From contig DATFEP010000077.1 of NCBI GenBank assembly GCA_035250975.1, forward strand, positions 1-15,472: a stretch of 15,472 nt of DNA. The letters run 5' to 3'. Numbering within the stretch: position 1 is the stretch's first letter; every line of letters begins with the position of its first letter. A program made the translations under genes and the position numbers. Source of the stretch: Nitrososphaeraceae archaeon (GTDB taxonomy: Archaea; Thermoproteota; Nitrososphaeria; Nitrososphaerales; Nitrososphaeraceae). The notes under the pieces are model-generated. The model was not told the origin of the DNA. It was given only the letters and a program-made list of their open reading frames with translations, and did not search any database. Shown in pieces: positions 1 to 15,472 of this stretch.

Positions 1-370
1 CTCCCCATAAAGGACCAGTTTGAAAACCCCATACTTGTCTTTGACGGCAATCATATTCTTTGCCAGCAGTACAGTCCTTACATATTCTACAGGTTAGATT
101 GGGATGTCCTACTATTCTGTCTCCTTTTTTTATATCTAAAATATTTTCTCCAATATCTACTACTGTTCCAGAAACATCACTTCCAGAAATGTGAGGAAGA
201 GGAATCTTGATTGGTTCTCCCCATATTCCCCAAAGATCATTGTAATTGTAAGATGCTGCTTCCACTTTTATAAGAACTTGATTATGTTTAATTTTAGGAA
301 TTTCTATCTCTTCTATTCTTACAACTTTTCGTGGATCTTTATTATGTTCATGATATACAGCTGCCTTCAT
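1..370 (-). CDS. Zn-binding MDR-superfamily dehydrogenase/reductase (ADH/QOR-like), N-terminal part; continues beyond the window start
   Basis: Not in the ORF track. Manual translation from ATG at 370: MKAAVYHEHNKDPRKVVRIEEIEIPKIKHNQVLIKVEAASYNYNDLWGIWGEPIKIPLPHISGSDVSGTVVDIGENILDIKKGDRIVGHPNLTCRICKDCTAGKEYDCRQRQVWGFQTGPLWG. Shows the ADH_N pattern (PHISGSDVSG, GDRI) and the structural-Zn motif CxxCxxC-x7-C. The catalytic GHE motif is replaced by GSD. Confidence 0.92.
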   Translation of the reverse strand, partial: MKAAVYHEHNKDPRKVVRIEEIEIPKIKHNQVLIKVEAASYNYNDLWGIWGEPIKIPLPHISGSDVSGTVVDIGENILDIKKGDRIVGHPNLTCRICKDCTAGKEYDCRQRQVWGFQTGPLWG

Positions 371-470
371 TTCAATAAACAATAAGCAATAGGAAATTTA
401 AAGAATATGTCTACAAAGTATTCTAAAAAAATATACAAATCATTTGGTGTAGCAAAGCCTTGTTACTAGA

Positions 471-515
471 GGGCTCGGAGGATAGTCAATTGTTTTTGAC
501 ACAAGTTTGTAGTTC
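471..515 (+). repeat. Dispersed repeat family A, copy A1 (putative recombination/att site)
   Basis: GGGCTCGGAGGATAGTCAATTGTTTTTGACACAAGTTTGTAGTTC; 40/45 identical to the copy at 5738. Confidence 0.95.
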
Positions 516-588
516 AGAAACCAAAAAAATAGGAATTCATCTAATGCTTTTATTGTTTGAATAAATCCTAAATTAATTAAATAAAGTA

Positions 589-1572
589 TTAATGATGTTC
601 TTTTTGTAAGGTAGCAATTGTTGCCAATACCATTTTTGTAACTGAAGTTAAATAAATCCAATTTATTAAATCTGGTGTATCAGTTGCAGAATGATAATGA
701 GGATTTTCATCTTCAGCGGATCCATCATAGGCACCAATTACAACATGTCCTTTGGCTTCAAAATGTTCATAATCACTACCATAAATATGTTTTAACAAAG
801 GGGGCTGTAGATCTGTGTACATTGACATTTTGACCATCAAATTTCCACATTCAATTGAATCATTATCATTTTGTTTTACTTTATTATATCGGCATTTGTC
901 ATCCTTATCATCATAATTATCTACTTCGACTACTACTATTCCAGCTCCTAGAAAAGGATTTCCTATCATGTCAAGATTAATTAGTCGAAATATCTGGATG
1001 CCATTTTCTTTGACATATTGAGCATAATGTTCTGATCCCAAAAGACCTCGTTCTTCACCAGAAAATAGAACAAATTGGATACCATATTCCATCTGTGGTT
1101 GGTTATAGAGTATACGCGCAATTTCTAAAATTGCGCTTACCCCACTTGCATTATCATTTGCGCCTGGAGCTCTTGAAATAGCATCTTCCAAATTAACTTT
1201 TAAAATTGTATCATAATGAGCACAAATCAAAATGTATTTGTTATCATTACCTTCTTTAGTACATATAACATTTTTGAGATTATAATTACAATTATCAATA
1301 TATGCCTTGTAATTATCAAAATAAACATCATGATATCCTATATTTTTGAATTCATCCAATAGCCAATCAGCAGCCTTATTAATCTGTCTAGACTTACTAT
1401 GTCTATTATGAAACGAGCTTAGATAATTTAATTTTGTTTTTATATTATCCAATGAAAGTTGATCTAATAATGATCCAATGTCATTATCTAATTTTATTTC
1501 AGACTTTTGCATGTCAATTGTAATTGTTTTCATGTCTCCGGTTCTTTTATCAATTTTAAAATTTTTACACAT
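589..1572 (-). CDS. M28 family Zn-metallopeptidase (aminopeptidase-like)
   Basis: Motifs CAHYDT, PGANDNASG, FSGEERGLLGS, INLDMIG, GSD and HYHSATD. No evident signal peptide. The start could instead be the downstream Met (MKTITID). Confidence 0.93.
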   Translation of the reverse strand: MCKNFKIDKRTGDMKTITIDMQKSEIKLDNDIGSLLDQLSLDNIKTKLNYLSSFHNRHSKSRQINKAADWLLDEFKNIGYHDVYFDNYKAYIDNCNYNLKNVICTKEGNDNKYILICAHYDTILKVNLEDAISRAPGANDNASGVSAILEIARILYNQPQMEYGIQFVLFSGEERGLLGSEHYAQYVKENGIQIFRLINLDMIGNPFLGAGIVVVEVDNYDDKDDKCRYNKVKQNDNDSIECGNLMVKMSMYTDLQPPLLKHIYGSDYEHFEAKGHVVIGAYDGSAEDENPHYHSATDTPDLINWIYLTSVTKMVLATIATLQKEHH

Positions 1573-1852
1573 GTTTAATTCACCAGTATTATTTTACTCT
1601 TAAACTTTTTATTATCCTCCAATATTATGTCATTATCTATTTGTTTAATAAAAAAGGATCTTAAAACCCTGCACGTTTTTGTCAAATTGACTTTTATTTT
1701 TAGACTCAATATTAATTTCTGCCATGGGAATGTTTCGTCCAGATATATTTAAGTTTATTTATGAGTAAATATAGAATTCTTAAATTATAAATTTACAATT
1801 TTTTAGTCGTCTCAATATTAGATTACTAAAAGTATATGATTAACAGCCAAGT

Positions 1853-1897
1853 GCAATCAGAAGCGTATCCACTGTTTTTGACACAAATTTGTAGTTC
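1853..1897 (+). repeat. Repeat family A, copy A2 (left half diverged)
   Basis: GCAATCAGAAGCGTATCCACTGTTTTTGACACAAATTTGTAGTTC. The right 26 nt match the consensus almost exactly; the left arm resembles the A4 subtype (GTATC(C/A)AC). Confidence 0.88.
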
Positions 1898-1942
1898 AAA
1901 GTAAGTATTTTTTATTTCAATAAGTAATAATATTGTGATCGA

Positions 1943-1952
1943 ACTTATAATA
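1943..1952 (+). promoter_or_regulatory. Putative archaeal TATA box for the PPOX gene
   Basis: TTATAA at 1945-1950, about 25 bp before ATG 1975, the spacing typical of leaderless archaeal transcripts. The AT-rich background weakens the call. Confidence 0.45.
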
Positions 1953-1974
1953 ATCTATCTAACCAATAATCCTA

Positions 1975-2409
1975 ATGGTAGAAATGACTAAAGATGAAAT
2001 CCGAAATTTTCTTTTAAAAGGCACTTTTACAGGGAAACTCGGGACAATTAACAAGAATGGAACACCACATGTGGTTCCTGTTTGGTATACTTTAGATGAC
2101 GAGGATAATATTTTATTTAATACAGATAATAGTTCAGTAAAAGCAAAGAATATTCAACGTGACAATCGAGTCCGTTTATGTGTAGACGATCAGGTTCCTC
2201 TTTTCTCATTTGTTACTATTGATGGTATTGCAGAATCAATTAGTAATGAACCAACCGAAGTTTACAAGTGGGCTAAAATTATCGCGGCTAGGTATATGGG
2301 TAATGATAAAGCAGCAGAGTATGGCAGGAGAAATAGTTCAGAAGGTGAACTATTGATAAAAATAAAACCAACCAAAGTTATTGGTCAAAAAGATATAGCA
2401 GGATGGTAA
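1975..2409 (+). CDS. PPOX-class (pyridoxamine 5'-phosphate oxidase-like) probable F420-dependent oxidoreductase
   Basis: LGTINKNGTPHVVPVWY, KAKNIQRDNRVRLCVDD, VTIDGIA and IKIKP: the split-barrel FMN/F420-binding family pattern; 144 aa. Confidence 0.92.
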   Translation: MVEMTKDEIRNFLLKGTFTGKLGTINKNGTPHVVPVWYTLDDEDNILFNTDNSSVKAKNIQRDNRVRLCVDDQVPLFSFVTIDGIAESISNEPTEVYKWAKIIAARYMGNDKAAEYGRRNSSEGELLIKIKPTKVIGQKDIAGW

Positions 2410-2499
2410 ATAATCGACTCAACTTTTCATAAATGAATGGTTTATTTATAAATTAATGAATTAAAGGTCAAAAAATTATACAAGTCGTTGGTATTATGT

Positions 2500-2543
2500 G
2501 GGTTCTGAGGACTTAGAATTCTCATTATAACAGGGTTCGGTAA
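2500..2543 (+). repeat. Repeat family B, degenerate copy B1
   Basis: GGGTTCTGAGGACTTAGA-N15-GGGTTCGGTAA aligns without gaps to 7165 GGGATCGGAGGGCTTCGA-N15-GGGATCGGTAA (14/18 and 10/11 in the two blocks; the middle has diverged). Confidence 0.65.
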
Positions 2544-2991
2544 CATTACATAATATAATTAGTTTTTGATAATTTTGAAGTATTATAACATCATTATCCT
2601 AGATTTTCAATCCAAGTACGATTTATATTATATCTTTATTTGGGAATAAAATAAATACTAGAAATTCTGGTAGATACATAGTTATACAACGGAATCTAAT
2701 TTAGAATTTACAGAAAATGTTAAAGATGATCTTGAGATAACTATGACAGCAAAGAAGTATTAAGGAAAGTTTGCTTAAATCTTAATGTACATATTAACAA
2801 TATGTCCATCTGTATATTCAGTTAGACGATCAGGAGTGGAGTCGTTCATGTAATAGGGTTTTCTTATCTTGTATTTGGTTTTTTGTGTAATACCAATAAA
2901 TAATTTAGTACATTAGGATATATTATAAATTTAAAGAATGAAAGGAAGGTATACAAAAATAATGTTACATCAGGTGGTTGATACCTTCTTG

Positions 2992-3384
2992 TTAATCAAT
3001 ATATTCTAAGTTGAATTTGACAGTACTATCCTCATCTTTAGGTAATTTTTTAGTCTGGCAGTATTCTGAATTATCATCTGATTCTTCTAAACATACTTTA
3101 ACTTTATCACCTGGTTCGCCTGATATCTTTTCTTTTATTTTTTCTGTGTTATCATTTATTTTTACAGTTGTTTCTATCTTATCATCTTCTGTTTTGATAG
3201 AGACATCTGTTTTAGTATCGACATTTTCTTCATTCTTGATAGATATATTAATTTTATAATCTTCTGCAAAAGATTGTTGAGACATCAAGAAAGGAGAAAC
3301 AAATAAAGTTGCTATCATTAATAAATATATAATAAATTTTAAGTTAAGTCTTAGATAATTTTTATTCTTTATTATATTATCCAT
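2992..3384 (-). CDS. Hypothetical secreted/membrane-anchored protein
   Basis: N-terminal basic and hydrophobic signal ending in SFA|E, followed by an acidic beta-rich domain with a Cys pair (VKVC...EYC). TTTATAAA box 20-27 bp upstream. Confidence 0.8.
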   Translation of the reverse strand: MDNIIKNKNYLRLNLKFIIYLLMIATLFVSPFLMSQQSFAEDYKINISIKNEENVDTKTDVSIKTEDDKIETTVKINDNTEKIKEKISGEPGDKVKVCLEESDDNSEYCQTKKLPKDEDSTVKFNLEYID

Positions 3385-3403
3385 ATTACTTATTTATTAT
3401 TAC

Positions 3404-3416
3404 TTTATAAAAATTT
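3404..3416 (-). promoter_or_regulatory. Putative BRE/TATA for the 2992-3384 gene
   Basis: The minus strand reads AAAAATTTTTATAAAG about 20-32 bp before the ATG. Confidence 0.45.
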
Positions 3417-3933
3417 TTAGAGATATGTATCTATAAAAAAAATCAGAATTAAATACAGTATAGTATTCTATTGTTAATATGTGATTTTCCAAAATTTTGT
3501 TTGTTGTAAAATAATAAAGAATCAACAAAACAAAAGAAATCATTAGTAATAAATTATATTATCATCTTTTACTGTAATTATGATAAAATATTATGACCGG
3601 TAATAGAGCTCAAAAAAATATTCTACCAAACAAGAGTTCGAGAAAGCAACTGTTGTAACAAATAACAAAGACAATGAAAATCTAAAAGAACTAAACAAAA
3701 TAGTTGATTTTTGTCCTAGATGGGAGAAACAAGAAGAAAATTTTGGCAAAGCCATAATGAATAATATTTGGGTAAATAATTTAGAATATAAATTATGTAT
3801 TAAAATTTCATAGTAGTATAAAATCTCTTTATTCATTATTTTTTTATATTATAAAACAATATCCTAGGATCTAGCCTCAGCAATATTTCTTATAGTAGTA
3901 ATCTTTATTTAGAATAATTACAATCTATTTCTA

Positions 3934-4551
3934 TTGGTATCCGGAAGATACTTTAACAAAGGAGTAAAAGCTTTAGATGAACCTAACTTAGGACACGTAG
4001 TTAGGGAAGCACCGGATAAAATTGTGATATTTGGTGGAAAAAATAAGAGATACGATATACCTATTTCGGAAATTCAACAGGTTGGTGCTAATGTTCTTAT
4101 TGGGTTACCATTTTCTGAAATTGAAAGTAAATATAGTGTAAATCGAAATGATCCACTTCCTACTAGTAGAAAAGATCCTTGGCAAACGGATAATCAAACG
4201 GATTTGGCCACTTATGAGGGCAAATATCCAAACTCATTATTTAATAAAGGAGTAAGAACAGAAAATGAAGACCACGTTGGACATGTTATGAAAGAAACAG
4301 ATGATAAAATAGTAGTTTTTGGATATGGAAGTGAAAGATTTGATATTCCCAAATCCGAGATACTTGCAGTAGGAAGAAATGTTATTGTAAAAAAGAACTT
4401 TCCAGAATTATTTATGTTTAAGGTAGATATGAATTCACCATTACCAACTGGAGAGCCATTAGAAAACATAGATGAAGAAGCATATCCTGAATATTACCAT
4501 GGTCCTAGAGATGATAAAGAAGATAAACATGATTTAATATATCCAAAATAA
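3934..4551 (+). CDS. Hypothetical protein with two tandem ~70-aa PRC-barrel-like domains
   Basis: Internal duplication: FNKGVKALDEPNLGHVVREAPDKIVIFG...RYDIPISEIQQVGANV...PLPT versus FNKGVRTENEDHVGHVMKETDDKIVVFG...RFDIPKSEILAVGRNV...PLPT. The 'G.V...IP...I..VG.NV' pattern is PRC-barrel-like (inference). Confidence 0.8.
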   Translation: MVSGRYFNKGVKALDEPNLGHVVREAPDKIVIFGGKNKRYDIPISEIQQVGANVLIGLPFSEIESKYSVNRNDPLPTSRKDPWQTDNQTDLATYEGKYPNSLFNKGVRTENEDHVGHVMKETDDKIVVFGYGSERFDIPKSEILAVGRNVIVKKNFPELFMFKVDMNSPLPTGEPLENIDEEAYPEYYHGPRDDKEDKHDLIYPK

Positions 4552-4914
4552 AATCTAACTATCTTTGTCTATAATGTCTTTTCTGTTATATCATTATCAA
4601 TATTGATTTTTTAAATTGTCCACAAAAGTATATCATTTATTCCTATTTCTTCTTTTTTGATTATTTCTGCATGATTGAAAATAGAAGGTTTTTGACATAA
4701 TTTCCTTTATAGTTTTAATGCATTCTAATTTGAATCTTTAAGAAATAGAGAAAAAATGTCTATTAATATGTTAATGTCTGTTATAGTATATTTATACATA
4801 TTCTTTCTGGATAACATGTTATTTGTTTCGATGAAGAAAGACAATATAGGTCAATCAATGGTCACACAATCTGAAATGTTTCTAATGAAAGAAGATTAAA
4901 TTGTTATAATTGAC

Positions 4915-5583
4915 TCATTTCTTCCCTAAATCTATAGTCTCATTGTCTATTGGAGATAACTTGAACAGTTCTTGGTTATTTTGCTTATAATCTGATCTTT
5001 CTTTTATTACCACTTCACAATCTGATTCAAAGATATCTCCCTGAGTTGTATTCAAATTAACTACTACATCCATCCCATCTCCACATTGAAAAATATCCTT
5101 GGCATTACCGCCAACAAGCAGATCATTTCCATTTTCTCCAAAAAACTTGTTTACATCCTTTGAGGTTGTAGAAGCAAAATCTCTAAGCCAGTCATCCCCT
5201 TCACCTCCATAAAGTTCATCATTCCCTTTGTAACCCATCAATATGTCATCATTTAAACCACCAATTAAAACATCCTTTCCATATTTAGTTTCATTAAAAA
5301 CCTCACTTGAAAGATCACCAATAATTGTATCCGCTCCCTCTCCTCCAAAAATAACATCATCTCCCCCCATTCCACGCAAATAATCTGAGCCTGTCCATCC
5401 GTATATTATATTGTTATTATTATTTCCAGTAATGTCATCGTCTGTTTCATCCCCTGTGCAGATCAGCAGACTCTCATCACACCAATATTTTATTCCTTGT
5501 ACTTCTTTAAAGAAAGAAACTCCAGTTGGAATAACTAGCGAAATTGATATTATAATTAGTGATATTACCTTCATCTTGATCAT
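4915..5583 (-). CDS. Secreted hemolysin-type (RTX-like) calcium-binding repeat protein
   Basis: Signal-like N-terminus; multiple GGxGxDxLxG nonapeptides (GMGGDDVIFGGEGADTIIG, GYKGNDELYGGEGDDWL); C-terminal cap CGDGMD...GD...DCE. Confidence 0.9.
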   Translation of the reverse strand: MIKMKVISLIIISISLVIPTGVSFFKEVQGIKYWCDESLLICTGDETDDDITGNNNNNIIYGWTGSDYLRGMGGDDVIFGGEGADTIIGDLSSEVFNETKYGKDVLIGGLNDDILMGYKGNDELYGGEGDDWLRDFASTTSKDVNKFFGENGNDLLVGGNAKDIFQCGDGMDVVVNLNTTQGDIFESDCEVVIKERSDYKQNNQELFKLSPIDNETIDLGKK

Positions 5584-5737
5584 TGTTACTCTTGGATTTT
5601 CCCATAAATAAATAAACCGTTCGTTTATTGAAAGTATTCTCTTCTACCTTTTTTAACATAGTTTCAATTTTTGGCGCATTGATATATCTTCTTCTTGTAT
5701 TCTTACGAGAGATTTGTATATGAACGCCGATATGATA

Positions 5738-5782
5738 GGGCTCGGAGGATAGTCAACTAATTTTGACACAATTTTGTAGTTT
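5738..5782 (+). repeat. Repeat family A, copy A3
   Basis: GGGCTCGGAGGATAGTCAACTAATTTTGACACAATTTTGTAGTTT; ends 16 bp from the GT2 stop codon. Confidence 0.95.
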
Positions 5783-5798
5783 TAAAAATAAAAATTAT

Positions 5799-7031
5799 TT
5801 ATATCGTTCTCTGATTTTCCTTAATCGTATATTTTCTGTCCTTCCAATTAACAGTGTGTTTATATGCAGAATTAATTATGGATGTAAAAAATACAATAAA
5901 TACAAAAGTACATGCTAATGGAAAGGCTACTGAATAGAAGATATTTTGAACTATTAAATATTTTAAATGCAAAATACTTGTTATTATCAACAATAAAATT
6001 GATGTTATGGCTAAAGATAGCAAAACTATATTTAGATTGGTCATATAATCTGTTATATGTTCTTGCTGTAACACCATGCTCATAATTGAGAATGCCAATA
6101 CAATTAGAGGTAGTAAGAGTAAAAGAAATGTTGCAATCACCATAAAACATGCCTTTATTTTTTCTCTTTTGTATATGGAAATCATTAATCTTCTAAGTCC
6201 ATGCCAAAGAGTAGAAGGGTCTCTTGCCCATAAAGCCTCTATGTGGTCTTTGCCATTAACTACTTTAAGTTTAAAGCCTTTCTCTTTTACTTTTCTTCCT
6301 AGTGCACCATCTTCTACAATTTCTTCCCTTACTGCTTTATGAGTACCAATTACCTCATAGGTTCTTCGTGTTATTATAAAAAAACTGCCAAAGAGGTATC
6401 CTATCTTGCTATTGGGATTGTTTGCTTTTAGCGCGGAGTATCTAGCCAAAGAAAGAGTCCAAAGTATAGGTAGAGTAATCTTTGTCCAAAAATCAGTTGT
6501 CGATATTTTGGGCATTGCAGTAAGAACATCAAGTTCTTCAGCTAAAAAATGATTCACAGCTAAAGAGATAGAGGTTAAAGAATGGATAGTGTCCGCATCA
6601 GTAAAAAGAAAGAGATCGCCTGTTGATTTAAGATATCCCTGATGGCAAGCCCAATTCTTTCCTGTCCAGTCATCTGGCTTTGGTTCTGCATTTACATACA
6701 CAACTCTAGAATTTGTTGTGCTATAATTCTTAATTATTTCAGCTGTTCTATCAGATGAAGAATCATTAATTACAACTATTTCATAATTGGAATAGTCTTG
6801 CTCAATTAAAGTTTTAAGACATTTTTCTATGTATTTTTCCTCATTTCTTGCAGGAACAATTATGCTCACCTTAGGAAAAACGATGTTTTTTTTAGATGCT
6901 ATAAAAGATTGTAGTTTTGGTACCTGTATTAGAGATTTTATAGTATAAACAAGAAAGTATACCCATGAAAAGAAAACACTGGAAATTATAGCAATTAAAG
7001 TTATTAATACAGCAAAATTATATTCTACCAA
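5799..7031 (-). CDS. Membrane-bound family 2 glycosyltransferase (HpnB/CrtQ-like lipid glycosyltransferase subgroup)
   Basis: VSIIVPARNEE, VINDSSSD, WTGKNWAC, FTDADT (DXD) and IVEDGALG. One N-terminal and three C-terminal TM segments; C-terminal VNWKDRKY. Confidence 0.92.
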   Translation of the reverse strand: MVEYNFAVLITLIAIISSVFFSWVYFLVYTIKSLIQVPKLQSFIASKKNIVFPKVSIIVPARNEEKYIEKCLKTLIEQDYSNYEIVVINDSSSDRTAEIIKNYSTTNSRVVYVNAEPKPDDWTGKNWACHQGYLKSTGDLFLFTDADTIHSLTSISLAVNHFLAEELDVLTAMPKISTTDFWTKITLPILWTLSLARYSALKANNPNSKIGYLFGSFFIITRRTYEVIGTHKAVREEIVEDGALGRKVKEKGFKLKVVNGKDHIEALWARDPSTLWHGLRRLMISIYKREKIKACFMVIATFLLLLLPLIVLAFSIMSMVLQQEHITDYMTNLNIVLLSLAITSILLLIITSILHLKYLIVQNIFYSVAFPLACTFVFIVFFTSIINSAYKHTVNWKDRKYTIKENQRTI

Positions 7032-7164
7032 TTAATATTAAGAAATATTTCTCTTTACATATAAATAATTTTTATATTATTTAATGCCTATAATATATAT
7101 AAATACATCAAAATTTATGGGAATGTCGTAAATAATGTAATACCTTTTCTATTTAGTATATTTT

Positions 7165-7206
7165 GGGATCGGAGGGCTTCGAGTATGACATGTAGTTGGG
7201 ATCGGT
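7165..7206 (+). repeat. Repeat family B, copy B2
   Basis: GGGATCGGAGGGCTTCGAGTATGACATGTAGTTGGGATCGGT; 38/42 identical to 12140. Contains TTGGGATCGG twice, 33 bp apart. Confidence 0.95.
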
Positions 7207-7652
7207 AAACTAGTATTTATTAATTTGGTAACTTATTTCAAATCTTTACGTACTGTTCCAATAGAATCTTAGGAAAGATAATAAAAGGATTTGAAACTTA
7301 TATCTTGTTTTCTATATTTTTATATCTTATATCCTAATTTGTTCTGTTATTATTATGTAATTATGTTCAACAACTATTCAGTAATATCATATTGATTATA
7401 CTACATAGAATTTTTCCTATGTATTAAAAAAATTGAATATTAATAACTTGAGATTTTATCAAATAAATAAATAATAATCATCAATGACGGGGAATAGATT
7501 CTGTTCAGGTCTATCCATGGGTTTCATTAGATAAAAATCAATCTTTGTCTTATTGATAGATCTTATAGCAGCATATATGGCTGAGTATATCAAATTTTTA
7601 TATCATATATATCGATTAGTACAGATGTGCAAATGGATGAACGAATAAGTCT

Positions 7653-7658
7653 GGAGGT
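7653..7658 (+). promoter_or_regulatory. Shine-Dalgarno sequence of the LLM gene
   Basis: GGAGGT 6 nt before the GTG start at 7665. Confidence 0.7.
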
Positions 7659-7664
7659 AAAAAT

Positions 7665-8648
7665 GTGACACAAGAAGATTTAGGTTTGCAAGTTGCCCCA
7701 ATATTCAGACCAACCCGAGAACGCGTTGGACTCATCGTCAATGGGGCAAATGCAGCAGCAGCAATAAAAACAATTGCTGCAGCCGAAGCTGCTGGTGTCC
7801 AGCAAATCTGGATGGCTCAGCCTCCTTGGTCCCCTGACGTACTGACAACACTTGCAGCAGCAGCAATAAAAACATCTAGAGTACATTTAGGAACGTCTAT
7901 TGTACCAACATATCCACGACACCCGATAGTCCTAGCACAGCAGGCTCTTTCGCTCTATGATATTGCACCAGGTCGATTGCGCCTGGGAATTGGCCCTAGC
8001 CATCGTGCTATTATAGAGGATATGTATGGCTTACCCCAGACAAAACCCTTGGTCCATTTACGCGAATATGTGAAAGTGCTGCATTCCGCTCTCTGGGATG
8101 GGAAGGTAGATCATCATGGAGAGTTCTTTAACATTGTAATCCAATTCCCACGTACAGCTCAAATTCCAGTGTTAATTTCAACATTAGGAAAAAAGGCGTT
8201 TCAATTGGCTGGAGAAATTGCTGATGGAGCTCTTTCATGGATGTGTCCTGTTCCGTATTTGCTCGATACAGGAATTCCGTCATTACGTAAAGCAGCAACT
8301 GCTAATGGACGCTCAAACCCTCCTCCATTGGTAGCACATGTTTTGGTAGCACTTTGCGAAGATCATGATTCTGTAATGGTGGCAGGCCATCAAATGATGG
8401 ACATGTATGCGAAATTTCCTTTTTATGTTAAAATGTTTGCTGCTGCAGGCTTCCCACTAACATCCGATAAGAAGGTGACTGATGATCTTGTTAATAATAT
8501 GATAATCTCTGGTCATGAAGCCACAGCGGCTGCATCGTTTACTAAACTTCTGACTGCAGGTTTGGATGAACTTATGGTAAGCCTGGTACCTATTGTAGAT
8601 GAGGACTATGAGCAGACCCAACTTATGCGTTTGATCGGCCAGCTGTAA
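7665..8648 (+). CDS. LLM-class (luciferase-like) flavin/F420-dependent oxidoreductase
   Basis: AEAAGVQQIW, TSRVHLGTSIVPTYPRHP, GRLRLGIGPSH and LAGEIADG motifs. Visibly higher GC than its neighbours. Confidence 0.94.
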   Translation: MTQEDLGLQVAPIFRPTRERVGLIVNGANAAAAIKTIAAAEAAGVQQIWMAQPPWSPDVLTTLAAAAIKTSRVHLGTSIVPTYPRHPIVLAQQALSLYDIAPGRLRLGIGPSHRAIIEDMYGLPQTKPLVHLREYVKVLHSALWDGKVDHHGEFFNIVIQFPRTAQIPVLISTLGKKAFQLAGEIADGALSWMCPVPYLLDTGIPSLRKAATANGRSNPPPLVAHVLVALCEDHDSVMVAGHQMMDMYAKFPFYVKMFAAAGFPLTSDKKVTDDLVNNMIISGHEATAAASFTKLLTAGLDELMVSLVPIVDEDYEQTQLMRLIGQL

Positions 8649-8709
8649 TGGCTGCAAGTAAGGGATAGTGCTTGGTCCATCGACTAAATGGGTTCAATAA
8701 TTAAAACTT

Positions 8710-8774
8710 AAACTTGGGGGGCTTAAAGCATGACATTTAATTGGGATCGGTTTTCTGTTATTTAATTTTACTTT
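8710..8774 (+). repeat. Repeat family B, copy B3
   Basis: AAACTTGGGGGGCTTAAAGCATGACATTTAATTGGGATCGGTTTTCTGTTATTTAATTTTACTTT aligns ungapped with 12140-12204 (32/42 in the core, plus a near-identical 23-nt T-rich tail). Confidence 0.88.
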
Positions 8775-9083
8775 TTTAATATGAAAAATTGTCTAATCAC
8801 AAAATGTTAACGCAATGAGTGGGATTCAAACCCCGAAGAAGTACACCGGTGTTTGTAAGATATCTCTCGAGTAATGGATTAATGAAATATTTATTTTAAA
8901 AAAAGAAAAAAGGTTGTCGATCGGTATATTGGATTATTCGACTTTATTATCTATTTACAAGTACCTGAAGGTAAAAGGGAGGAAGTTAACACAAGGTTTG
9001 GATTATTTATTAAATAGAAAAAACAAATAACAGCATAAAAAACGAGCTCTTCATATAGTATAAAGACTAATACAGAGTAAATA

Positions 9084-9353
9084 ATGACGACAGAATTCAC
9101 TTATCATTATTTGTCATATTGTGTTTCTGTTTTCTTTCTCTTTTACTCTTTATTTTTATTGTCAGTCCATGGTGAATTCGAACAAGAAGAAGACTATTCA
9201 AACATGGACATATATGGAAACATATTTTACAACAATATCGATGATGAAATCTTGGACACTGAACCTCCCGTTCCAATGAATACCACAGAACTGATAGAAA
9301 TAGGAAAGAATCTTACAATTATCCACAACCCTTCTACTGAAAAATATTTTTAA
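9084..9353 (+). CDS. Small hypothetical protein, N-terminal hydrophobic segment and acidic tail
   Basis: 89 aa; signal-like segment (VSVFFLFYSLFLLSVHG) followed by an acidic region. Family not recognised. Confidence 0.5.
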   Translation: MTTEFTYHYLSYCVSVFFLFYSLFLLSVHGEFEQEEDYSNMDIYGNIFYNNIDDEILDTEPPVPMNTTELIEIGKNLTIIHNPSTEKYF

Positions 9354-9420
9354 TATCTGTCCTTATCTGCAGAAACAACCAATAACAAACTAACAAAAAA
9401 TAAAATAAAAAAAGAAAAAT

Positions 9421-9633
9421 TTAGGTTGGTTGTACAATCAACCCTAGTTTTTCTAAACATTCCAGTATGTCGTTTCTCTCCTGCTGAGTCACATCCACAG
9501 TATTAGTTAGTGCATTTTCTATTTGCAAGTATGCTGTCGCTTTCTCTGCGTCAGTTAAAGAGGCTAATATATTAAATAGACCGGTGACCGTTTCTGTTTC
9601 TGCCTCAAGTAAATCTAGGAACTGATTGAATTG
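9421..9633 (-). pseudogene. 5'-truncated gene remnant (C-terminal 70 aa of a larger protein)
   Basis: Not in the ORF track. Stop-to-stop open frame QFNQFLDLLEAETETVTGLFNILASLTDAEKATAYLQIENALTNTVDVTQQERNDILECLEKLGLIVQPT*, protein-like and amphipathic. An in-frame TAG lies at 9634-9636 and there is no start codon at the 5' end. Confidence 0.65.
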
Positions 9634-9818
9634 CTATGTATCTTAAACATAGAAAGAAATTTTTTAAAATAAAGTCATAGAAGTATTTACTTATGGATTA
9701 TAAAAAATCATGTTAGCGATTCTTTATTGTGATCTTCCTTACTGATCTTTTTTAAAAATATTACACTGAAAAGTATTATCTAGCTCTTAAATATTTTAAT
9801 ACTCTTTTAATAGATACA

Positions 9819-10181
9819 TTGAAAAATAACAAATTAATAGGAATACCTTTGGCAATATTGTTAATACTTACTATAACAACTGTTGGCTTTACTAATTCTG
9901 CATTTGCACATAGTAAAAAGGCGAAAGTTGGTTGCTATGATCTTGCTATTAACCTTGTAAGTTGGGATGGACTGTACAGATACATAGATGACGATGATTT
10001 AGCAGCTCTTGAGGATGTCTTTGGTGAAGATCCAAAGGATGACTTAGATCCGGCTTCATTCGATAAAATCATTGATAGACACATGGAAGATGTATTAGAT
10101 GACTTTAAAGATGCCAAGTGTAAGAAGCATATTGATAAGGATCTAAAGAAGTGGATAAGAGATGTTGAGTTTGAAAGATAA
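9819..10181 (+). CDS. Hypothetical secreted protein
   Basis: Clear signal peptide (MKNNKLIGIPLAILLILTITTVGFTNSAFA|H), then an acidic helical domain with two Cys. Confidence 0.8.
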   Translation: MKNNKLIGIPLAILLILTITTVGFTNSAFAHSKKAKVGCYDLAINLVSWDGLYRYIDDDDLAALEDVFGEDPKDDLDPASFDKIIDRHMEDVLDDFKDAKCKKHIDKDLKKWIRDVEFER

Positions 10182-10495
10182 GAATAAGATATAGATAGAT
10201 AGAATCAGGTGTAAAAGATATTTTAAGTCATCCTTAAAGCCATTTTTCTTATCTAAATCTCCATAATTCTTCCAAAATTGAATGTAGATCTTTTCATGCA
10301 AGGTCAATTAATTGTGAATTGAAATGCCTGCGTAACACGACAATCAGTTTATAATATTTATTAAAGATTATTGAATATATCTTAATATACAGAACAAATA
10401 AGGTTTTTCCTTAAGCATAGATTGTTTGATGCATATTTCATAGACTCCTCCAATATTATCTTCCATTTCCTAGTATATGAGCCCAATTGGTAGAC

Positions 10496-10540
10496 GGGCC
10501 ACGAGGTGTATCAACTGATTTTGACACAATTTTGTAGTTC
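10496..10540 (+). repeat. Repeat family A, copy A4
   Basis: GGGCCACGAGGTGTATCAACTGATTTTGACACAATTTTGTAGTTC; 10511-10544 is identical over 34 bp to 15348-15381. Confidence 0.95.
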
Positions 10541-10709
10541 TATATCAAAAATATCCACAATTTGTTCTTACATTCTAACAAAATACCATTGATATATCGT
10601 TCTTGATATAGTGTAGAATTGATGAAAAAGAATAGTAAATTAGAAAATTTTACATTACTCCTTAACTATTAAAAATTTTTAATGTGATACCTATAATTCT
10701 ATTTAATTA

Positions 10710-12014
10710 ATGTATAGTATAAACAGACAGGTTCCACTTTATCCTCTATTATTGATTAATTTTATTGGAACTCTAGGTTTTAGTATTGTTTTACCTTTTT
10801 TGATATTTTTAGTCATAGATTTTGGAGGGAATGCTATAGTTTATGGAATACTAGCTGCAGTATATCCTGCATTTCAACTAATAGGATCTCCAATTCTAGG
10901 AAGATGGTCTGATATTTATGGCCGAAAAAAAGTTCTTCTTGTCAGTCATGGAGGAACATTAATTGGTTGGATATTTTTTCTTTTTGCATTGTTTTTGCCT
11001 GTTGAAAATCTTTTTATCATTAATTCTGCTCTTTTTGGAACTATTGTTATAACTCTTCCCTTACTTGTATTATTTTTTGCACGTTCTATTGATGGAATAA
11101 CAGGTGGAAATATCTCTGTGGCCAATGCCTATCTTGCAGATATTTCATCAGATGAAAACAGAAGTAAAAACTTTGGTAAAATGGCAATATCTTCGAATCT
11201 TGGTTTTATTGTTGGTCCCGCATTAGCAGGAATTTTAGGTGCAACTATTTATCAAGAAATATTACCTGTCTTGGCTGCTCTATTTCTCTCTCTAATTACC
11301 TTAATAGTCATAGGTTTCGCTTTAAAAGAATCAAAGCCTCAATTGGCTGTTACGAAACAAATTCCGGAAAAAGAAAGTGTTAGAAAAGTTTTTGCACATG
11401 AATGCAAAGAATGCTACCAGCCTGAAAATCCAAAAAAACTTAAATTTCAAGATGTTTTCAAGTTAAAAAATATTCCATTCCTAATTTCCTTATACTTTTT
11501 TATTTTCCTTGGATTTAACATATTTTATACATCTTTTCCAATTCATGCAGTGAATGATTTAAAATGGTCAGTAACAGAACTTGGAATATTTTATGCAGTA
11601 CTAAGTGGAATCATGGTTTTGGTACAAGGTCCGATTTTGCATAAGTCTTTAAAAAAATTCTCTGAAGAAAAACTAGTTATAATTGGAAGTATTATTCTAG
11701 GTACAAATTTTATTTTATTTATATCAAATGATGATAGCTTAATTTATGTCGCTGCAATTCTGTTTGCAGTTGGGAATGGGCTGATGTGGCCATCTTTTAT
11801 GTCAATACTTTCAAAGATTTCTGGCAATATATATCAAGGATTCATACAAGGAGTTGCAAGTAGTTTTGGGAGTCTAGCAAGTATTGTTGGACTAACAATA
11901 GGAGGATTTTTGTATAATTTAATTGGAGGATTTACTTTTCTAATTAGTGCTGGAATCATATTTGCAATTTTTATTATGTCTTTTAGACTATTGAAAATGA
12001 AAGTGTTTAACTAA
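10710..12014 (+). CDS. MFS transporter, DHA1/TetA-like drug:H+ antiporter family
   Basis: Motif A (LGRWSDIYGRKKVL), motif B region (ARSIDGITGGNISVANAYLAD) and motif C (LGFIVGPALAG); 12 or more hydrophobic segments. Confidence 0.94.
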   Translation: MYSINRQVPLYPLLLINFIGTLGFSIVLPFLIFLVIDFGGNAIVYGILAAVYPAFQLIGSPILGRWSDIYGRKKVLLVSHGGTLIGWIFFLFALFLPVENLFIINSALFGTIVITLPLLVLFFARSIDGITGGNISVANAYLADISSDENRSKNFGKMAISSNLGFIVGPALAGILGATIYQEILPVLAALFLSLITLIVIGFALKESKPQLAVTKQIPEKESVRKVFAHECKECYQPENPKKLKFQDVFKLKNIPFLISLYFFIFLGFNIFYTSFPIHAVNDLKWSVTELGIFYAVLSGIMVLVQGPILHKSLKKFSEEKLVIIGSIILGTNFILFISNDDSLIYVAAILFAVGNGLMWPSFMSILSKISGNIYQGFIQGVASSFGSLASIVGLTIGGFLYNLIGGFTFLISAGIIFAIFIMSFRLLKMKVFN

Positions 12015-12139
12015 CTAATTATAAAAAATAAAAAAGGTCTATCAAAATAGGATATTATATTTTAAATATAGTCTAAATTAAGTCATGTTTACCATTTTTT
12101 CTATTCTTTGAAAAATGTTATTGAACCCTACTAGTATAT

Positions 12140-12186
12140 GGACTCGGAGGGCTTCGAGAATGACATGCAGTTGGGATCGGTTTTCT
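12140..12186 (+). repeat. Repeat family B, copy B4 (best tRNA-3'-like core)
   Basis: GGACTCGGAGGGCTTCGAGAATGACATGCAGTTGGGATCGGTTTTCT. Lies between the convergent MFS and TFB genes, 16 bp from the TFB stop. Confidence 0.95.
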
Positions 12187-12202
12187 CTTATTTTATTTTA
12201 CT

Positions 12203-13204
12203 TTATTTTATCGATTTTAAATTCAAGGTATAAACTATATCATTATACCATTTTCTTAAAACTGAATCAGATATTCCTGTTGATTTTGCAAATTCTCTCT
12301 GTGTTTTTGTTTTTCCTTTTTTATCGTTATAATCCTCATCAATTTTACAGGCAACATATACGGTTGAAGCAGCAATTGCTATTGGATTTTTTCCTTCGTG
12401 AATCTTATTTCGTTTTACATCTGCCATGATTTGTATTGCTTTACGTTCTGTACTCTCGTTTAAATTCATTTTATTTGTTATTTTTATAATACATTTCATT
12501 GGATCTATAACAGGTACGGTCTCTAAACCAAGTTCAACAACAAGAATTCTATAATAATGTGAAATAGTTCTTATCTTTACATTAGTTGCTTTTGAAATCT
12601 CTTTTAGTGTTGTGGGTCTTTCAAATTCTTTACATGCTAAATAAATTGAAGCAGAAACTATTCCATCTATTGTTCTTCCACGTACAATTCCCAATGACTG
12701 TGCTTTTTTATAAAAGTAAAATGATTTTTTTATTATCGCATCTGAAATACCAAGTTTGTATTTTAATTTATTCAGTTGTTCAAAAGCATATTTTAAATTT
12801 CTGTCTGTTGCATTATTATATCTTGTTCTTTTCTCCAATACTCTCAATTTATTTATAATGTTCTCCATATCTGTTCCAATTTTTCTTCCTGTAGCATCCA
12901 CATTAGTTCTTCCTATGATTGTAGGCGATTGAATATTATAGGGTAGAATATTGCTTGTATTGTGAGACATTAACTCATTATTAATTGCCTGTGCAGTACC
13001 GTTAACATTGTTTATCTCTTCATAAATTAGTGGTGAAGGACATTCATCATTCTTTTCATCAGATAAAACTTTACCGCATTTAACGCAAATTACTTCTCTC
13101 GTTTCAGGATCGGATATAGTTTTATAATTATCATTACAAATTAAACATAATGATCTTTTATCATTAATATTCTCAATGTCATTCTCATCATTGTTATAAC
13201 TCAA
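12203..13204 (-). CDS. tfb: Transcription initiation factor IIB (TFB) paralogue
   Basis: Zn ribbon CLIC...DPETREVICVKCGKV; two cyclin repeats (DRNLKYAF, VRGRTIDGIVSASIYLACK...TLKEI, GKNPIAIAASTVYVAC, TQREFA). Confidence 0.95.
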   Translation of the reverse strand: MSYNNDENDIENINDKRSLCLICNDNYKTISDPETREVICVKCGKVLSDEKNDECPSPLIYEEINNVNGTAQAINNELMSHNTSNILPYNIQSPTIIGRTNVDATGRKIGTDMENIINKLRVLEKRTRYNNATDRNLKYAFEQLNKLKYKLGISDAIIKKSFYFYKKAQSLGIVRGRTIDGIVSASIYLACKEFERPTTLKEISKATNVKIRTISHYYRILVVELGLETVPVIDPMKCIIKITNKMNLNESTERKAIQIMADVKRNKIHEGKNPIAIAASTVYVACKIDEDYNDKKGKTKTQREFAKSTGISDSVLRKWYNDIVYTLNLKSIK

Positions 13205-13811
13205 TATTATTTAATACGTATAAAGATAATTTATGTATTTAATAGGTTATAAAAAATAACATTTTTTAATCAGATTTGGTTAACTGATAATGTAGATAAA
13301 TTAAATATAACACAGACAATGGTATTATATAATATCTCCCACTCATGTAAAGCAATATAGGATATCTGATGGGAGAAAATGTTTTCTTTTTCGTTGATGC
13401 GTAAATTTTTGGTTTTAGGTAAGTGCCATGAGATAAAATGAATTCTTTAAATATTAAGCATCTTTTAAAATTTTTTCTTATCAATATCACCAATTGTTCT
13501 TCATTCTTATTTCAGAAAGGCATAATGTTTTTCCATTTGGAAATAAATCATTTTTCTAGTATTGCATAAAACCTTGTAGGATTGTCTTTACTTCCATTTC
13601 TGGATTCTGTAATTTCCTTTACTGCATAAACCTGTTCTTTTACTATGTAAATCGAATCCCAATAGGAGCAAGTGTTCTATTTAATTTCTCTTTAAGATTT
13701 CCAAGAAATCATTTTCAAGTTATTGATATCAATTCTTCATTGTAGCAAAACTATTTTCGTTGAACCATAATTGAACTATCAACTTTAATAGTTCTTGATT
13801 ATTTTCAAAAA

Positions 13812-14119
13812 TTACCTTGTTACCGTTTCACAATCTACGGTTTTTCTGTCTCCTTCCAGATTGTTAAAGTTTACTGCGATATCATTTCCTGGTCCACATA
13901 TATAAAAATCAGCGCCTGAATTACCTATCAAGGTATCATCACCATTCGCTCCTATCAGTTTATCATCACCTTTGCCTCCCTTAATTATATCGTTTCCATC
14001 TCCACCATCAAGAAAATCATCTCCTGCTCCCCCATACAATTTATCGTTTCCAGAATCACCTATGAGCTCATCTTCACCTTCCTTTCCCTTTAATATATCA
14101 TACCCAATCCGCCGAACAA
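13812..14119 (-). pseudogene. 5'-truncated, frameshifted hemolysin-type Ca-binding repeat gene
   Basis: The RTX nonapeptides continue upstream of the called ORF (DILKGKEGEDELIGDSGNDKLYGGAGDD). One more repeat (LFGGLG) lies across a 1-nt deletion at about 14100. No signal peptide. Same C-terminal cap (CGPGND...GD...DCE) as 4915-5583. Confidence 0.8.
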
Positions 14120-14120
14120 A

Positions 14121-15143
14121 ACTGCTGTTATTTCAGCAATTATTGCAATTATTTCTATTTTCCTTGCAAATAGGAATAGTAAAGAACTCCAGAAATCAGA
14201 TTTTAATTATCAAAATAAGATAAAAGAATTAGAATTAAAACACTCTGAGAGACTAAAGAAACTTGAATCAGAATTAACAAGTGAAAGAGATGAAGTTGCA
14301 AGACGAGAATATGAATATGATGCCAGAAAGAGACTTTATCAAGAGTATGAACCATTATTGTTCCAATTCAATGAATTAGCAGAAAATGCGTTGAGACGTA
14401 TTATTGCGTTAGCAAGAGATTCTAGAGAAGGAAGATTCGAAGTAGGTAAAGGATGGCTTTCTGGTTCGGGATATTATTTTGACAGTACAATATATCGATT
14501 ATTTGTCCCATTTGCAATATTCAATCTTATGCAGAGAAAGTTAACCATGTTCGATCTAAAATTAGACCCATTTTTTACTCATCAGTATTTACTAATCAAA
14601 TTATTGTATCATACATTTAGTCACGATATAAGACTAGCAAATATTAAACCAAAAATTAACAATTATGATCCCAATCTAATAATGAAAGAGGATCCCAATT
14701 CTAAACAACAAGGAATTTACATAGGAATTGTTGATAATCTGGCTAACGAATTCATCATAAAAGATGGCGAAAACCTGAGAATAATGACCTTCGGAGAATT
14801 TTCTAAACTTTGCTCAGATTCTTCAAAATTTATAACTTTTGAGGCGATATCTAAAATATTCAAAGATTTTCATCCAGAAAGTCATCCAGTTCTATGGAGA
14901 ATATTAATGGTTCAAGCATATATCTATAGAATAATATTAATTGACTATGATAAACATTACAAAAAAGAGAGTGTAGACATTAAAGAGATATTATCTTCAA
15001 TACCCATGAATTGGCGGTTAAAGTTTGATTGGAGACAAGAAAATGAAAGAGAAAATATACCTGATAAATCTGTATTTGATGATCCTTTTAATGTAGCAGA
15101 GATCTATTTACGTAAAAGAATAGAAGAATTAAAAATTACATAA
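14121..15143 (+). CDS. Hypothetical membrane-anchored protein with coiled coil; true 5' end apparently lost (track start 14358 is internal)
   Basis: The frame is open from 14094. Upstream of 14358 it encodes TAVISAIIAIISIFLANRNSKELQK...ELELKHSERLKKLESELTSERDEVARREYEYDARKRLYQEYEPLL (TM helix plus coiled coil) but has no ATG/GTG/TTG. Confidence 0.75.
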   Translation, partial: TAVISAIIAIISIFLANRNSKELQKSDFNYQNKIKELELKHSERLKKLESELTSERDEVARREYEYDARKRLYQEYEPLLFQFNELAENALRRIIALARDSREGRFEVGKGWLSGSGYYFDSTIYRLFVPFAIFNLMQRKLTMFDLKLDPFFTHQYLLIKLLYHTFSHDIRLANIKPKINNYDPNLIMKEDPNSKQQGIYIGIVDNLANEFIIKDGENLRIMTFGEFSKLCSDSSKFITFEAISKIFKDFHPESHPVLWRILMVQAYIYRIILIDYDKHYKKESVDIKEILSSIPMNWRLKFDWRQENERENIPDKSVFDDPFNVAEIYLRKRIEELKIT

Positions 15144-15332
15144 ACACATGCAGTCATCATCTTACAATTGAAATTTTGAGATTTTTATTTTAATTATTGA
15201 AAAGGTAGCAGAGATAGCATGGTAGCGCTCCCTATAGAACGTATGTCAAAAAAAGTAATTTAATATAAAATAATTATGAAATCATTATAGATATTATAAT
15301 TTCTACAAGATATTACAGATACCACATAGTAA

Positions 15333-15377
15333 GTACACGGAGGATAGTCAACTGATTTTGACACAATTTTGTAGTTC
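15333..15377 (+). repeat. Repeat family A, copy A5
   Basis: GTACACGGAGGATAGTCAACTGATTTTGACACAATTTTGTAGTTC; 40/45 identical to 5738. Confidence 0.95.
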
Positions 15378-15472
15378 TATAGTTACAAAAAAAATAAATT
15401 ATTTCTTCATTTTCCAATTTTATTATGTACATCATCATATCTTTTTAGACCTACAATTTTTACGGTATTAAA

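Follow-up and report, generated by a model that had tools for sequence, protein, structure and literature searches.

A probable tandem array of small integrative modules joined at tRNA-Arg-derived sites in soil Nitrososphaeraceae

Introduction

How does a stretch of archaeal chromosome come to hold a series of unrelated genes that are set apart by related repeats, all pointing the same way? We asked this of a 15,472-bp contig (G000:C11) from a Nitrososphaeraceae archaeon, the whole of which is referred to here as the window. Its genome assembly comprises 2.49 Mb (30.6% G+C, 94.6% complete), and the host is a soil ammonia-oxidising archaeon. Soil Nitrososphaeraceae are major nitrifiers, and the ways in which they gain accessory genes are poorly understood. 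A preliminary description of the window compared its nine repeats with the recombination sites of integrons and pdif modules. Here, we present evidence that the window belongs to a very long series of small gene modules and is best read as a segment of a tandem array of integrative elements, most of them without an integrase, whose junctions are attachment (att) sites. We give this reading a probability of roughly three in four.

Results

Nine co-oriented junction sites in the window

Profile searches recovered nine repeats in the window with E-values from 1e-7 to 3e-14, at the same coordinates as in the preliminary description: A-type sites at 471, 1853, 5738, 10496 and 15333, and B-type sites at 2500, 7165, 8710 and 12140. 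An exhaustive nhmmer scan of the window found no tenth site. All nine lie on the plus strand and are intergenic, in that none overlaps an open reading frame (ORF) of at least 70 amino acids. Start-to-start spacings are 1382, 647, 3238, 1427, 1545, 1786, 1644 and 3193 bp, which are the module lengths reported before. The fixed orientation also held up, because the sites stay on the plus strand whichever way the adjoining genes run. The sites and one associated head are as follows.

471–519, plus strand: A-type junction site; core GGGCTCGGAGG at 11 of 11 letters, followed by an A tail; E 1e-13
1853–1901, plus strand: A-type junction site; eroded core (6 of 11), A tail intact; E 6e-12
2500–2547, plus strand: B-type junction site; variant tail, core 9 of 11; E 1e-7
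5738–5786, plus strand: A-type junction site; core 11 of 11
7165–7212, plus strand: B-type junction site; core 10 of 11, followed by 7 letters that all (7 of 7) equal the reverse complement of the tRNA-Arg 3' end
8710–8757, plus strand: B-type junction site; eroded core (6 of 11)
10464–10495, plus strand: type 2 head, read as an integrase-proximal arm with no integrase remaining
10496–10544, plus strand: A-type junction site; core 8 of 11
12140–12188, plus strand: B-type junction site; core 10 of 11, followed by 7 letters as in tRNA-Arg (7 of 7)
15333–15381, plus strand: A-type junction site; core 8 of 11

Each site is built of three parts: a variable head, an 11-nt core and a tail of either A or B type. 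Conservation was computed over 214 A contexts and 98 B contexts, all distinct and drawn from many species. The tail spans about 35–40 nt and is strongly conserved in two related types, heads are poorly conserved, and GGAGG is the best-conserved portion of the core. Every combination of head and tail is present, and A- and B-type sites have only the 11-nt core in common. The shared start GG(G/A)CTCGGAGG noted in the preliminary description is real, as is its erosion at 1853 and 8710. Heads carry TATA-like motifs about 20–25 nt upstream of the core, and the A tail contains two short inverted repeats. A conserved hairpin in the head was considered and rejected, since its GARCC motif occurs in only 71 of 315 sites (fixed scan window), which marks the heads as heterogeneous.

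Cores match the 3' end of tRNA-Arg and heads lead to an integrase gene

Reverse-complemented, the last 19 nt of tRNA-Arg(TCG), positions 57–75, give the core together with the beginning of the B tail; the gene at G016:C10:1,147,352–1,147,426 in a related genome served as reference. Fourteen B sites in the arrays of G016, G019 and contig C27 of the window's own genome match these 19 nt over their full length at 89–100% identity, and shorter matches of 14–16 nt occur on contigs C11, C36 and C87 of the same genome. The cores in the window agree with the tRNA-derived core at 6–11 of 11 letters.

The heads point to the same locus. Sequence just downstream of the G016 tRNA-Arg(TCG) gene is, when reverse-complemented, one of the head types, and an intact gene for a 436-aa tyrosine recombinase begins 58 nt after the tRNA and occupies G016:C10:1,147,485–1,148,795. 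The window's head at 10464–10495 matches this spacer between tRNA and integrase start at 25 of 32 letters. The G016 element is complete at about 4.6 kb and consists of the integrase, a 154-aa ORF, a gene with a SIR2_2 domain and a B tail. SIR2_2 domains recur in defence systems. An rve-type transposase fragment lies in the same G016 array. The preliminary description had suggested that such arrays might end at a tRNA or tyrosine recombinase gene, and in this relative an array does adjoin both tRNA-Arg(TCG) and an intact integrase.

Remnants of the same integrase family were found at other junctions. Contig C27 of the window's genome ends in an integrase stub (76% identity over 72 aa), a type 2 head and the first letters of a core. 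N-terminal stubs lie 60–68 nt from array sites and are directed away from them in three of the four matches on G019:C11 and three of the eight in the G016 region. About 1 in 10 array sites of these two genomes retain a stub. On G019:C11, G+C-rich sequence follows an N-terminal stub at 149,890–150,060; a contig end that is chimeric and an insert of foreign DNA are both possible explanations. Beyond the G016 element, 12 loci with an intact or near-intact integrase were examined. Three of these adjoin a tRNA-Arg gene (TCG in two cases, CCT in the third) whose end contains the exact core; another stands beside an A site within an array, and two stand beside other tRNAs.

Within our comparison set, which comprised 25 genomes of the genus, 12 of other genera in the family and 24 of other families in the order, the integrase family is present in 22 of the 25 from the genus. 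The three without it are two incomplete genomes and G012, which is 98% complete and has no sites either; exact cores in G012 were rejected as sites after they proved to lie inside a coding RTX-type repeat. Nine intact integrase copies are 57–74% identical to the first and keep the RPHE, RHS and RY motifs along with a C-terminal CxxC...CxxC. The nearest NCBIfam model is archaeal XerA, at 23–31 bits against a cut-off of 220, and a search of PDB sequences for a solved structure gave no match at E<=0.1.

Other recombinases were examined as candidates. A 364-aa tyrosine recombinase of contig G000:C13 was ruled out as the array recombinase. It occurs in 16 of 25 genomes; G012 and G017 lack it, but so do G005 and G014, which are rich in sites, and in G016 and G019 it is a pseudogene. 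The DNA retrieved around 13 copies holds no A or B site. The IS200/IS605 Y1 transposase (PF01797) has no match in G000, G019, G012 or G017 and one sub-threshold match in G016, and the serine resolvase family (PF00239) has none in G000 or G019. No recombinase was recognised in the conserved left flank of the array when ORF translations were inspected by eye, without a Pfam scan.

Homology between arrays breaks at the core

When the window was compared with the genus by blastn, module-sized matches ended at the sites. Module order differs in G016 and G019, where the window's modules lie tens of kilobases apart and the left and right neighbours of the window's sites are not adjacent. Two modules on either side of the site at 12140 illustrate this.

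10507–12150, no strand assigned: MFS module, made up of an A tail, the MFS gene (10710–12014), a head and a core
12151–15347, no strand assigned: presence/absence module, made up of a B tail, a TFB gene, an RTX remnant and a 261-aa ORF

The MFS module is 95% identical to G019:C11:96008–97652, where its neighbours are different. Homology passes through the head and stops at the last G of GGAGG. Past this point the two diverge: a B tail and the TFB module come next in the window, and an A tail and the sequence found after window position 15343 come next in G019. The 3.2-kb module at 12151–15347 is absent as a unit from G019.

To locate such breakpoints more generally, 315 distinct site contexts were scanned, with the last G of GGAGG set as position 0. 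Eight pairs of sites had homologous left flanks, different tail types and unrelated right flanks, and their homology ended at 0 in six cases, at −2 in one and at +1 in one. Among nine pairs that are homologous only on the right, homology set in between −19 and +8. The breakpoints at the core place the exchange point in or at the end of CGGAGG. Because A and B sites share just 11 letters and yet break there, the pattern argues for site-specific exchange and not for ordinary homologous recombination. Each unit lies between direct repeats, and it is within the repeat that presence/absence breakpoints are located. That the repeats are junction scars of repeated site-specific insertion at one locus, as the preliminary description proposed, is borne out by homology that ends at the core, by an array start that is the same in three genomes and by the array of a relative that adjoins tRNA-Arg(TCG) and an intact integrase.

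Some differences between arrays have other forms. The window's luciferase-like monooxygenase gene (7631–8654) is inverted relative to G019:C11:114172–115192; the B tail and the type of head that enclose it are shared by the two genomes. A 2.3-kb stretch with three ORFs of no known family (2556–4862) is missing from an otherwise matching G016 module; it has no recognisable bounding site, only a weak A-like match at 4688–4703 (E 0.46). The solo B site at G016 1,217,385 was considered as an empty site and rejected, because it represents a replacement and not a clean insertion.

Both forms of one junction coexist in a metagenome

Twenty public runs from 13 studies contain part of the searched stretch, with no RNA run among those listed, and metagenome contigs of four runs (four studies) were aligned to the window. 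In metagenome X2, one contig joins position 12150 directly to 15348, skipping 3197 nt, and a second contig runs unbroken over 11923–15370. Both forms of this junction therefore coexist, and they constitute one presence/absence variant among near-identical populations. The skipped stretch is the module that G019 lacks, so gain or loss of a module with breakpoints at the shared core, which the preliminary description had proposed to look for between strains, was seen both between species and within X2.

Loose contig ends were also found at sites, namely at 2516, 5739, 5782, 7171, 7199, 7238/7242, 10503, 12154, 15337/15343 and 15377, and away from sites at 2989, 9354, 14025 and 14160. The site at 10496 has several differing upstream contexts among the metagenome contigs, with loose ends at 10503. 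This clustering is partly a trivial effect of repeats on contig ends, which does not apply to the joint of 12150 to 15348. Further joints (2015 to 12149, 10499 to 841 and 10540 to 7181) all have short sides. In X4, parts of the window are covered by no contig. Joints from 12145 back to 10504, a step back of 1642 in X2, X3 and X5, could reflect a circle or a tandemly copied MFS module; their basis is only 30–35 letters of a recurring head, so they were not counted.

Arrays are long, co-oriented and largely confined to the genus

A profile search of contigs, with sites counted at E<0.01, found 18 A and 13 B sites in the window's genome, that is, 31 sites on nine contigs, co-oriented inside each. 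A 21-mer from the A site (at most 2 mismatches) occurs 14 times in this genome. Of the other 24 genomes in the genus, 23 carry it in 1–52 copies; outside the genus it is found in 1 of 12 genomes from the rest of the family and in 0 of 24 from other families of the order. The reversed 21-mer gave 0–1 matches per genome, so the pattern is far beyond chance.

The longest arrays are seen on large contigs of relatives. G019:C11 carries 31 sites, all on the plus strand, between 40.4 and 143.4 kb, which amounts to a 103-kb array, and its cores (at most 2 mismatches) number 21 on the plus strand and 0 on the minus strand. On G016:C10, plus-strand sites span 1,235,998–1,358,999, a 123-kb array, and a shorter run of minus-strand sites at 1,080,042–1,169,919 includes the tRNA-Arg gene and the intact integrase. 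With 103 kb in G019 and 123 kb plus 22 kb in G016, the arrays take up about 4% of the genome. Overall, 95 of 96 sequences with at least two sites are co-oriented, a count that overstates independence since some of these sequences overlap. The copies thus form co-oriented arrays within the genus, as the preliminary description predicted, and are not scattered in random orientation.

The exception among the 96 is a clean switch from minus to plus in G016, beyond which plus sites extend over 1,176,671–1,358,999, with a lone minus site at 1,361,842. Such a switch could have come about through a large inversion between inverted sites. The switch region at 1.170–1.177 Mb contains only metabolic genes, and neither GC/AT skew nor gene-strand bias over 320 kb of G016 shows a clear switch.

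The left end of the array lies at the same chromosomal place in three genomes. In the window's genome the array is probably one locus split across contigs C32, C11, C36, C27 and C90. The window (1–440) and contig C32 (1–836) begin in the same multi-copy zinc alcohol-dehydrogenase gene, and contigs that start in the same multi-copy gene indicate that the assembly breaks at repeated modules. This gene was at one point considered as a recombinase, an assignment that was rejected.

Exact core matches in a public sequence collection fall in records titled as Nitrososphaeraceae or Nitrososphaerales metagenome-assembled genomes (MAGs), among them TH1177 and TH5894. Two records with bacterial titles, one for a Bacilli MAG and one for a 484-kb contig of a betaproteobacterial MAG, likewise contain exact A cores with heads of the usual kind; both are probably mislabelled or misbinned archaeal DNA.

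Cargo genes are functionally diverse

The named genes of the window are listed below, each assigned by Pfam apart from the first.

2–382, minus strand: 5' part of the zinc alcohol-dehydrogenase gene, which is multi-copy and at which the assembly breaks
589–1572, minus strand: M28 peptidase, cargo
1975–2409, plus strand: PNPOx-family protein, cargo
4915–5583, minus strand: RTX calcium-binding repeat protein, cargo
5799–7031, minus strand: family 2 glycosyltransferase (GT2), cargo
7665–8648, plus strand: luciferase-like monooxygenase (LLM), cargo
12203–13204, minus strand: TFB (TFIIB-type) paralogue, cargo

Pfam upheld the earlier names for the M28 peptidase, PNPOx, GT2, LLM, MFS and TFIIB genes and added the RTX-repeat protein; the remaining small ORFs of the window match no Pfam family except for one RTX remnant. 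Genes are split about equally over both strands. Five of the eight modules hold a single ORF of at least 60 aa, the same number as claimed before, and some hold 2–4. The earlier statement that modules vary in G+C content is only weakly true: the LLM module stands out at 38.8%, and the other seven fall between 28 and 31%. The 647-bp PNPOx module is present in several copies per genome. Within the RTX-type repeat remnant, a 27-nt tandem pair was noted at 13924–14039, and in two metagenomes there are contigs with an extra 27 nt inserted behind 14015.

Elsewhere, the G019 array encodes 71 ORFs of at least 100 aa that are concerned with metabolism and transport. The 25 most frequent of its 68 families include alcohol dehydrogenases, MFS, LLM, PNPOx, cyclases, Kdp, Nramp, PPK2, ChrB, MgtC and ferritin. 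Large ORFs beside solo sites encode unrelated enzymes and transporter-like pairs.

Weighing the alternatives

Several results weigh against reading the window as a tandem array of integrative elements. Searches with tblastn and PF00589, together with a tRNA scan, found neither integrase nor integrase stub nor tRNA in the window, and none of its eight modules has an integrase of its own. Only fragments of the integrase family occur in this genome and in G019, which makes present activity here doubtful, and tRNA-Arg(TCG) is absent from the 94.6%-complete assembly. The large plus-strand arrays of G016 and G019 do not adjoin a tRNA; the G016 tRNA lies in the separate run of opposite orientation. 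The A tail has only 11–12 nt in common with the tRNA, six of the 12 further integrase loci have neither core nor tRNA nearby, and the Pfam score of the integrase is marginally below the cut-off (26.3 versus 27.1 bits). Finally, modules are 82–96% identical between species and flanking core DNA is 87–96% identical. Since module identity is about that of core DNA, recent transfer is unsupported, and differential loss and rearrangement could explain much of the variation. As to the earlier proposal that a recombinase lies outside the window, none is present within and an intact one exists in a relative, but its supply in trans in this genome is unsupported, given that only fragments were found.

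Much of this would also fit fossil scars, meaning old tRNA-Arg integrations whose modules are dead and whose differences arose through deletion, inversion and homologous recombination between repeats. Eroded cores and the indel at 2556–4862, with its missing boundary, point the same way. We nevertheless regard this account as unlikely. Exchanges between A and B tails break exactly at the 11-nt core (six of eight at position 0), which is too short for ordinary homologous recombination, and strong conservation of the tails but not of the heads argues for functional constraint. Moreover, intact integrases persist in several genomes, one of them directly beside an A site, and both forms of one junction occur in a single metagenome. 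It is considerably less likely that the sites serve primarily as small RNA genes, terminators, operators or elements resembling miniature inverted-repeat transposable elements (MITEs), with rearrangement as a side effect. The TATA-like motifs and the inverted repeats of the A tail might suggest such a role, but the motif is explained as the region upstream of an integrase gene, orientation is constant regardless of gene direction, and the sites have no terminal inverted repeats or target duplications and recombine heads with tails at one point. Rfam in E-value mode gave three snoRNA-like matches in the window, all far under the gathering scores, and single-stranded DNA folds of the nine sites on both strands (18 folds) were no more stable than shuffles (z −0.80 to +1.30).

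These folds also speak against a canonical integron, in which IntI would act on folded attC sites, and we consider that explanation highly improbable, refuted as it is on the features examined. Co-oriented repeats do part gene-sized units of unrelated cargo, and integrons are on record in archaea (PMC9668308, in the portion concerned with archaeal integrons), yet no gene matches PF00589 on the window or on G019:C11 with its 103-kb array, cargo genes run in either direction and the core is a tRNA 3' end. Modules of the Xer/dif type, like the pdif modules of Acinetobacter plasmids, are equally improbable. Archaeal XerA is the nearest NCBIfam model for the integrase, though far under its cut-off; the sites are all direct and not alternating, no 11-6-11 dyad surrounds the crossover, and the window's genome has no small Xer-like gene at E<=0.01. 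What survives of the integron and pdif analogy drawn in the preliminary description is the likeness in function; the attC-like fold and a platform gene of the IntI or Xer type were not found. Ordinary att sites that stem from a tRNA 3' end, with neither attC fold nor IntI/Xer platform, make tandem integrative elements, and not integrons, the closest kin of the array.

Discussion

Taken as a tandem array of integrative elements, the window suggests the following mechanism. The core would be the attachment core of tyrosine integrases of about 430 aa that target the 3' end of tRNA-Arg. Read on the plus strand, a module would consist of a tail (the integrase-distal arm), one or a few cargo genes, a head and the core, with the head representing the integrase-proximal arm, including the region upstream of the integrase gene. 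In some modules an integrase stub would remain between cargo and head, pointing away from the junction. A circular element of head, core and tail could recombine with any chromosomal core, whether in a tRNA gene or at an existing junction, and would then lie between two directly oriented cores. Repeated insertion would build a co-oriented array, and each junction would be an attP-like hybrid that joins the integrase-proximal arm of one element, through the core, to the integrase-distal arm of the next. Recombination between two cores would delete or relocate the modules between them. Most modules appear to have lost their integrase, leaving cargo and arms, and would be movable only with an integrase supplied in trans. 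The sites, their identity with the tRNA-Arg end and the integrase-proximal arm, the breakpoints at the core, the reshuffled module order and one presence/absence variant are observed; catalysis by this integrase family, circular intermediates, mobilisation in trans and present-day activity are what we infer. Since the window's genome holds only integrase fragments, its array may stay immobile unless a helper element enters. More tentatively, we suggest a genus-wide platform on which modules of arm and core are excised, inserted and shuffled in trans by the integrases of occasional autonomous elements; this larger picture is possible, and we hold it with less confidence than the reading of the window itself.

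Similar accretion is known in streptococci, where integrase-less, att-flanked units of the type of cis-mobilisable elements (CIMEs) are placed in tandem alongside an autonomous element whose integrase they rely on. Those cases comprise one or two units, whereas the array described here has dozens and is conserved across the genus. The pdif modules differ in having 28-bp dif-like sites in alternating orientation that are cut by Xer, in contrast to the uniformly direct sites of the array.

Tycheposon islands of Prochlorococcus may be the closest analogue. As described in part of a preprint (bioRxiv 10.1101/2020.12.28.424599), these are tyrosine-recombinase elements at a tRNA gene, in which newer arrivals displace earlier ones inward and cargo takes the form of plug-in cassettes; partial tRNA copies, fragmented integrases and niche cargo for transport and metabolism are further points of likeness. 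Compared with the islands in that account, the array has an archaeal host and forms a denser and longer chain, with about 31 junctions per 103 kb. Most of its units are 0.6–3 kb and lack an integrase or replication module, and its junctions keep a conserved arm of 35–40 nt beyond the tRNA-derived core.

A survey of Thaumarchaeota, in its sections on integration (PMC6563490), describes tyrosine integrases, tRNA gene targets and att sites with a median of 17 bp, and allows that arrays could arise by re-use of a site. The array shares the tRNA target, the tyrosine integrases and a short att (11–19 bp here). Elements in that survey were defined by an integrase and measure 2.6–98 kb, and integrons are listed there among the types unseen in thaumarchaea. 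The tandem elements it reports are paired, in contrast to the dozens of integrase-less modules here. Archaeal integrons with canonical attC and IntI have been described in a report (PMC9668308) whose main text names neither Thaumarchaeota nor Nitrososphaer- taxa. The features of sedentary chromosomal integrons set out in the relevant part of that report recall the array in several ways: a fixed platform, co-oriented sites, mostly single-gene units of unrelated accessory function, sites that are more alike within a lineage, and many arrays with no adjacent integrase. Unlike integrons as portrayed there, the array has no attC fold or IntI, its genes run either way, and its crossover point falls midway along a composite site of tRNA origin. 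Full-text literature searches found no description of such arrays in Thaumarchaeota or ammonia-oxidising archaea.

The model offers a testable mechanism, in which a crossover core of 11–19 bp, two types of arm and a candidate integrase family build chains of single-gene modules. Because the arrays break short-read assemblies, they also affect how MAGs from this group are interpreted. The cargo includes transporters, oxidoreductases, glycosyltransferases, transcription-factor paralogues and genes for metal and ion homeostasis. If the genus-wide picture is true, the platform would be a functional counterpart of the integron that originated independently, from tRNA-integrating elements, and would be a main route of accessory-gene flux in these organisms. 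On the reading of the window itself, an integron-like organisation can evolve from ordinary tRNA-targeting elements, which bears on the origin of cassette systems.

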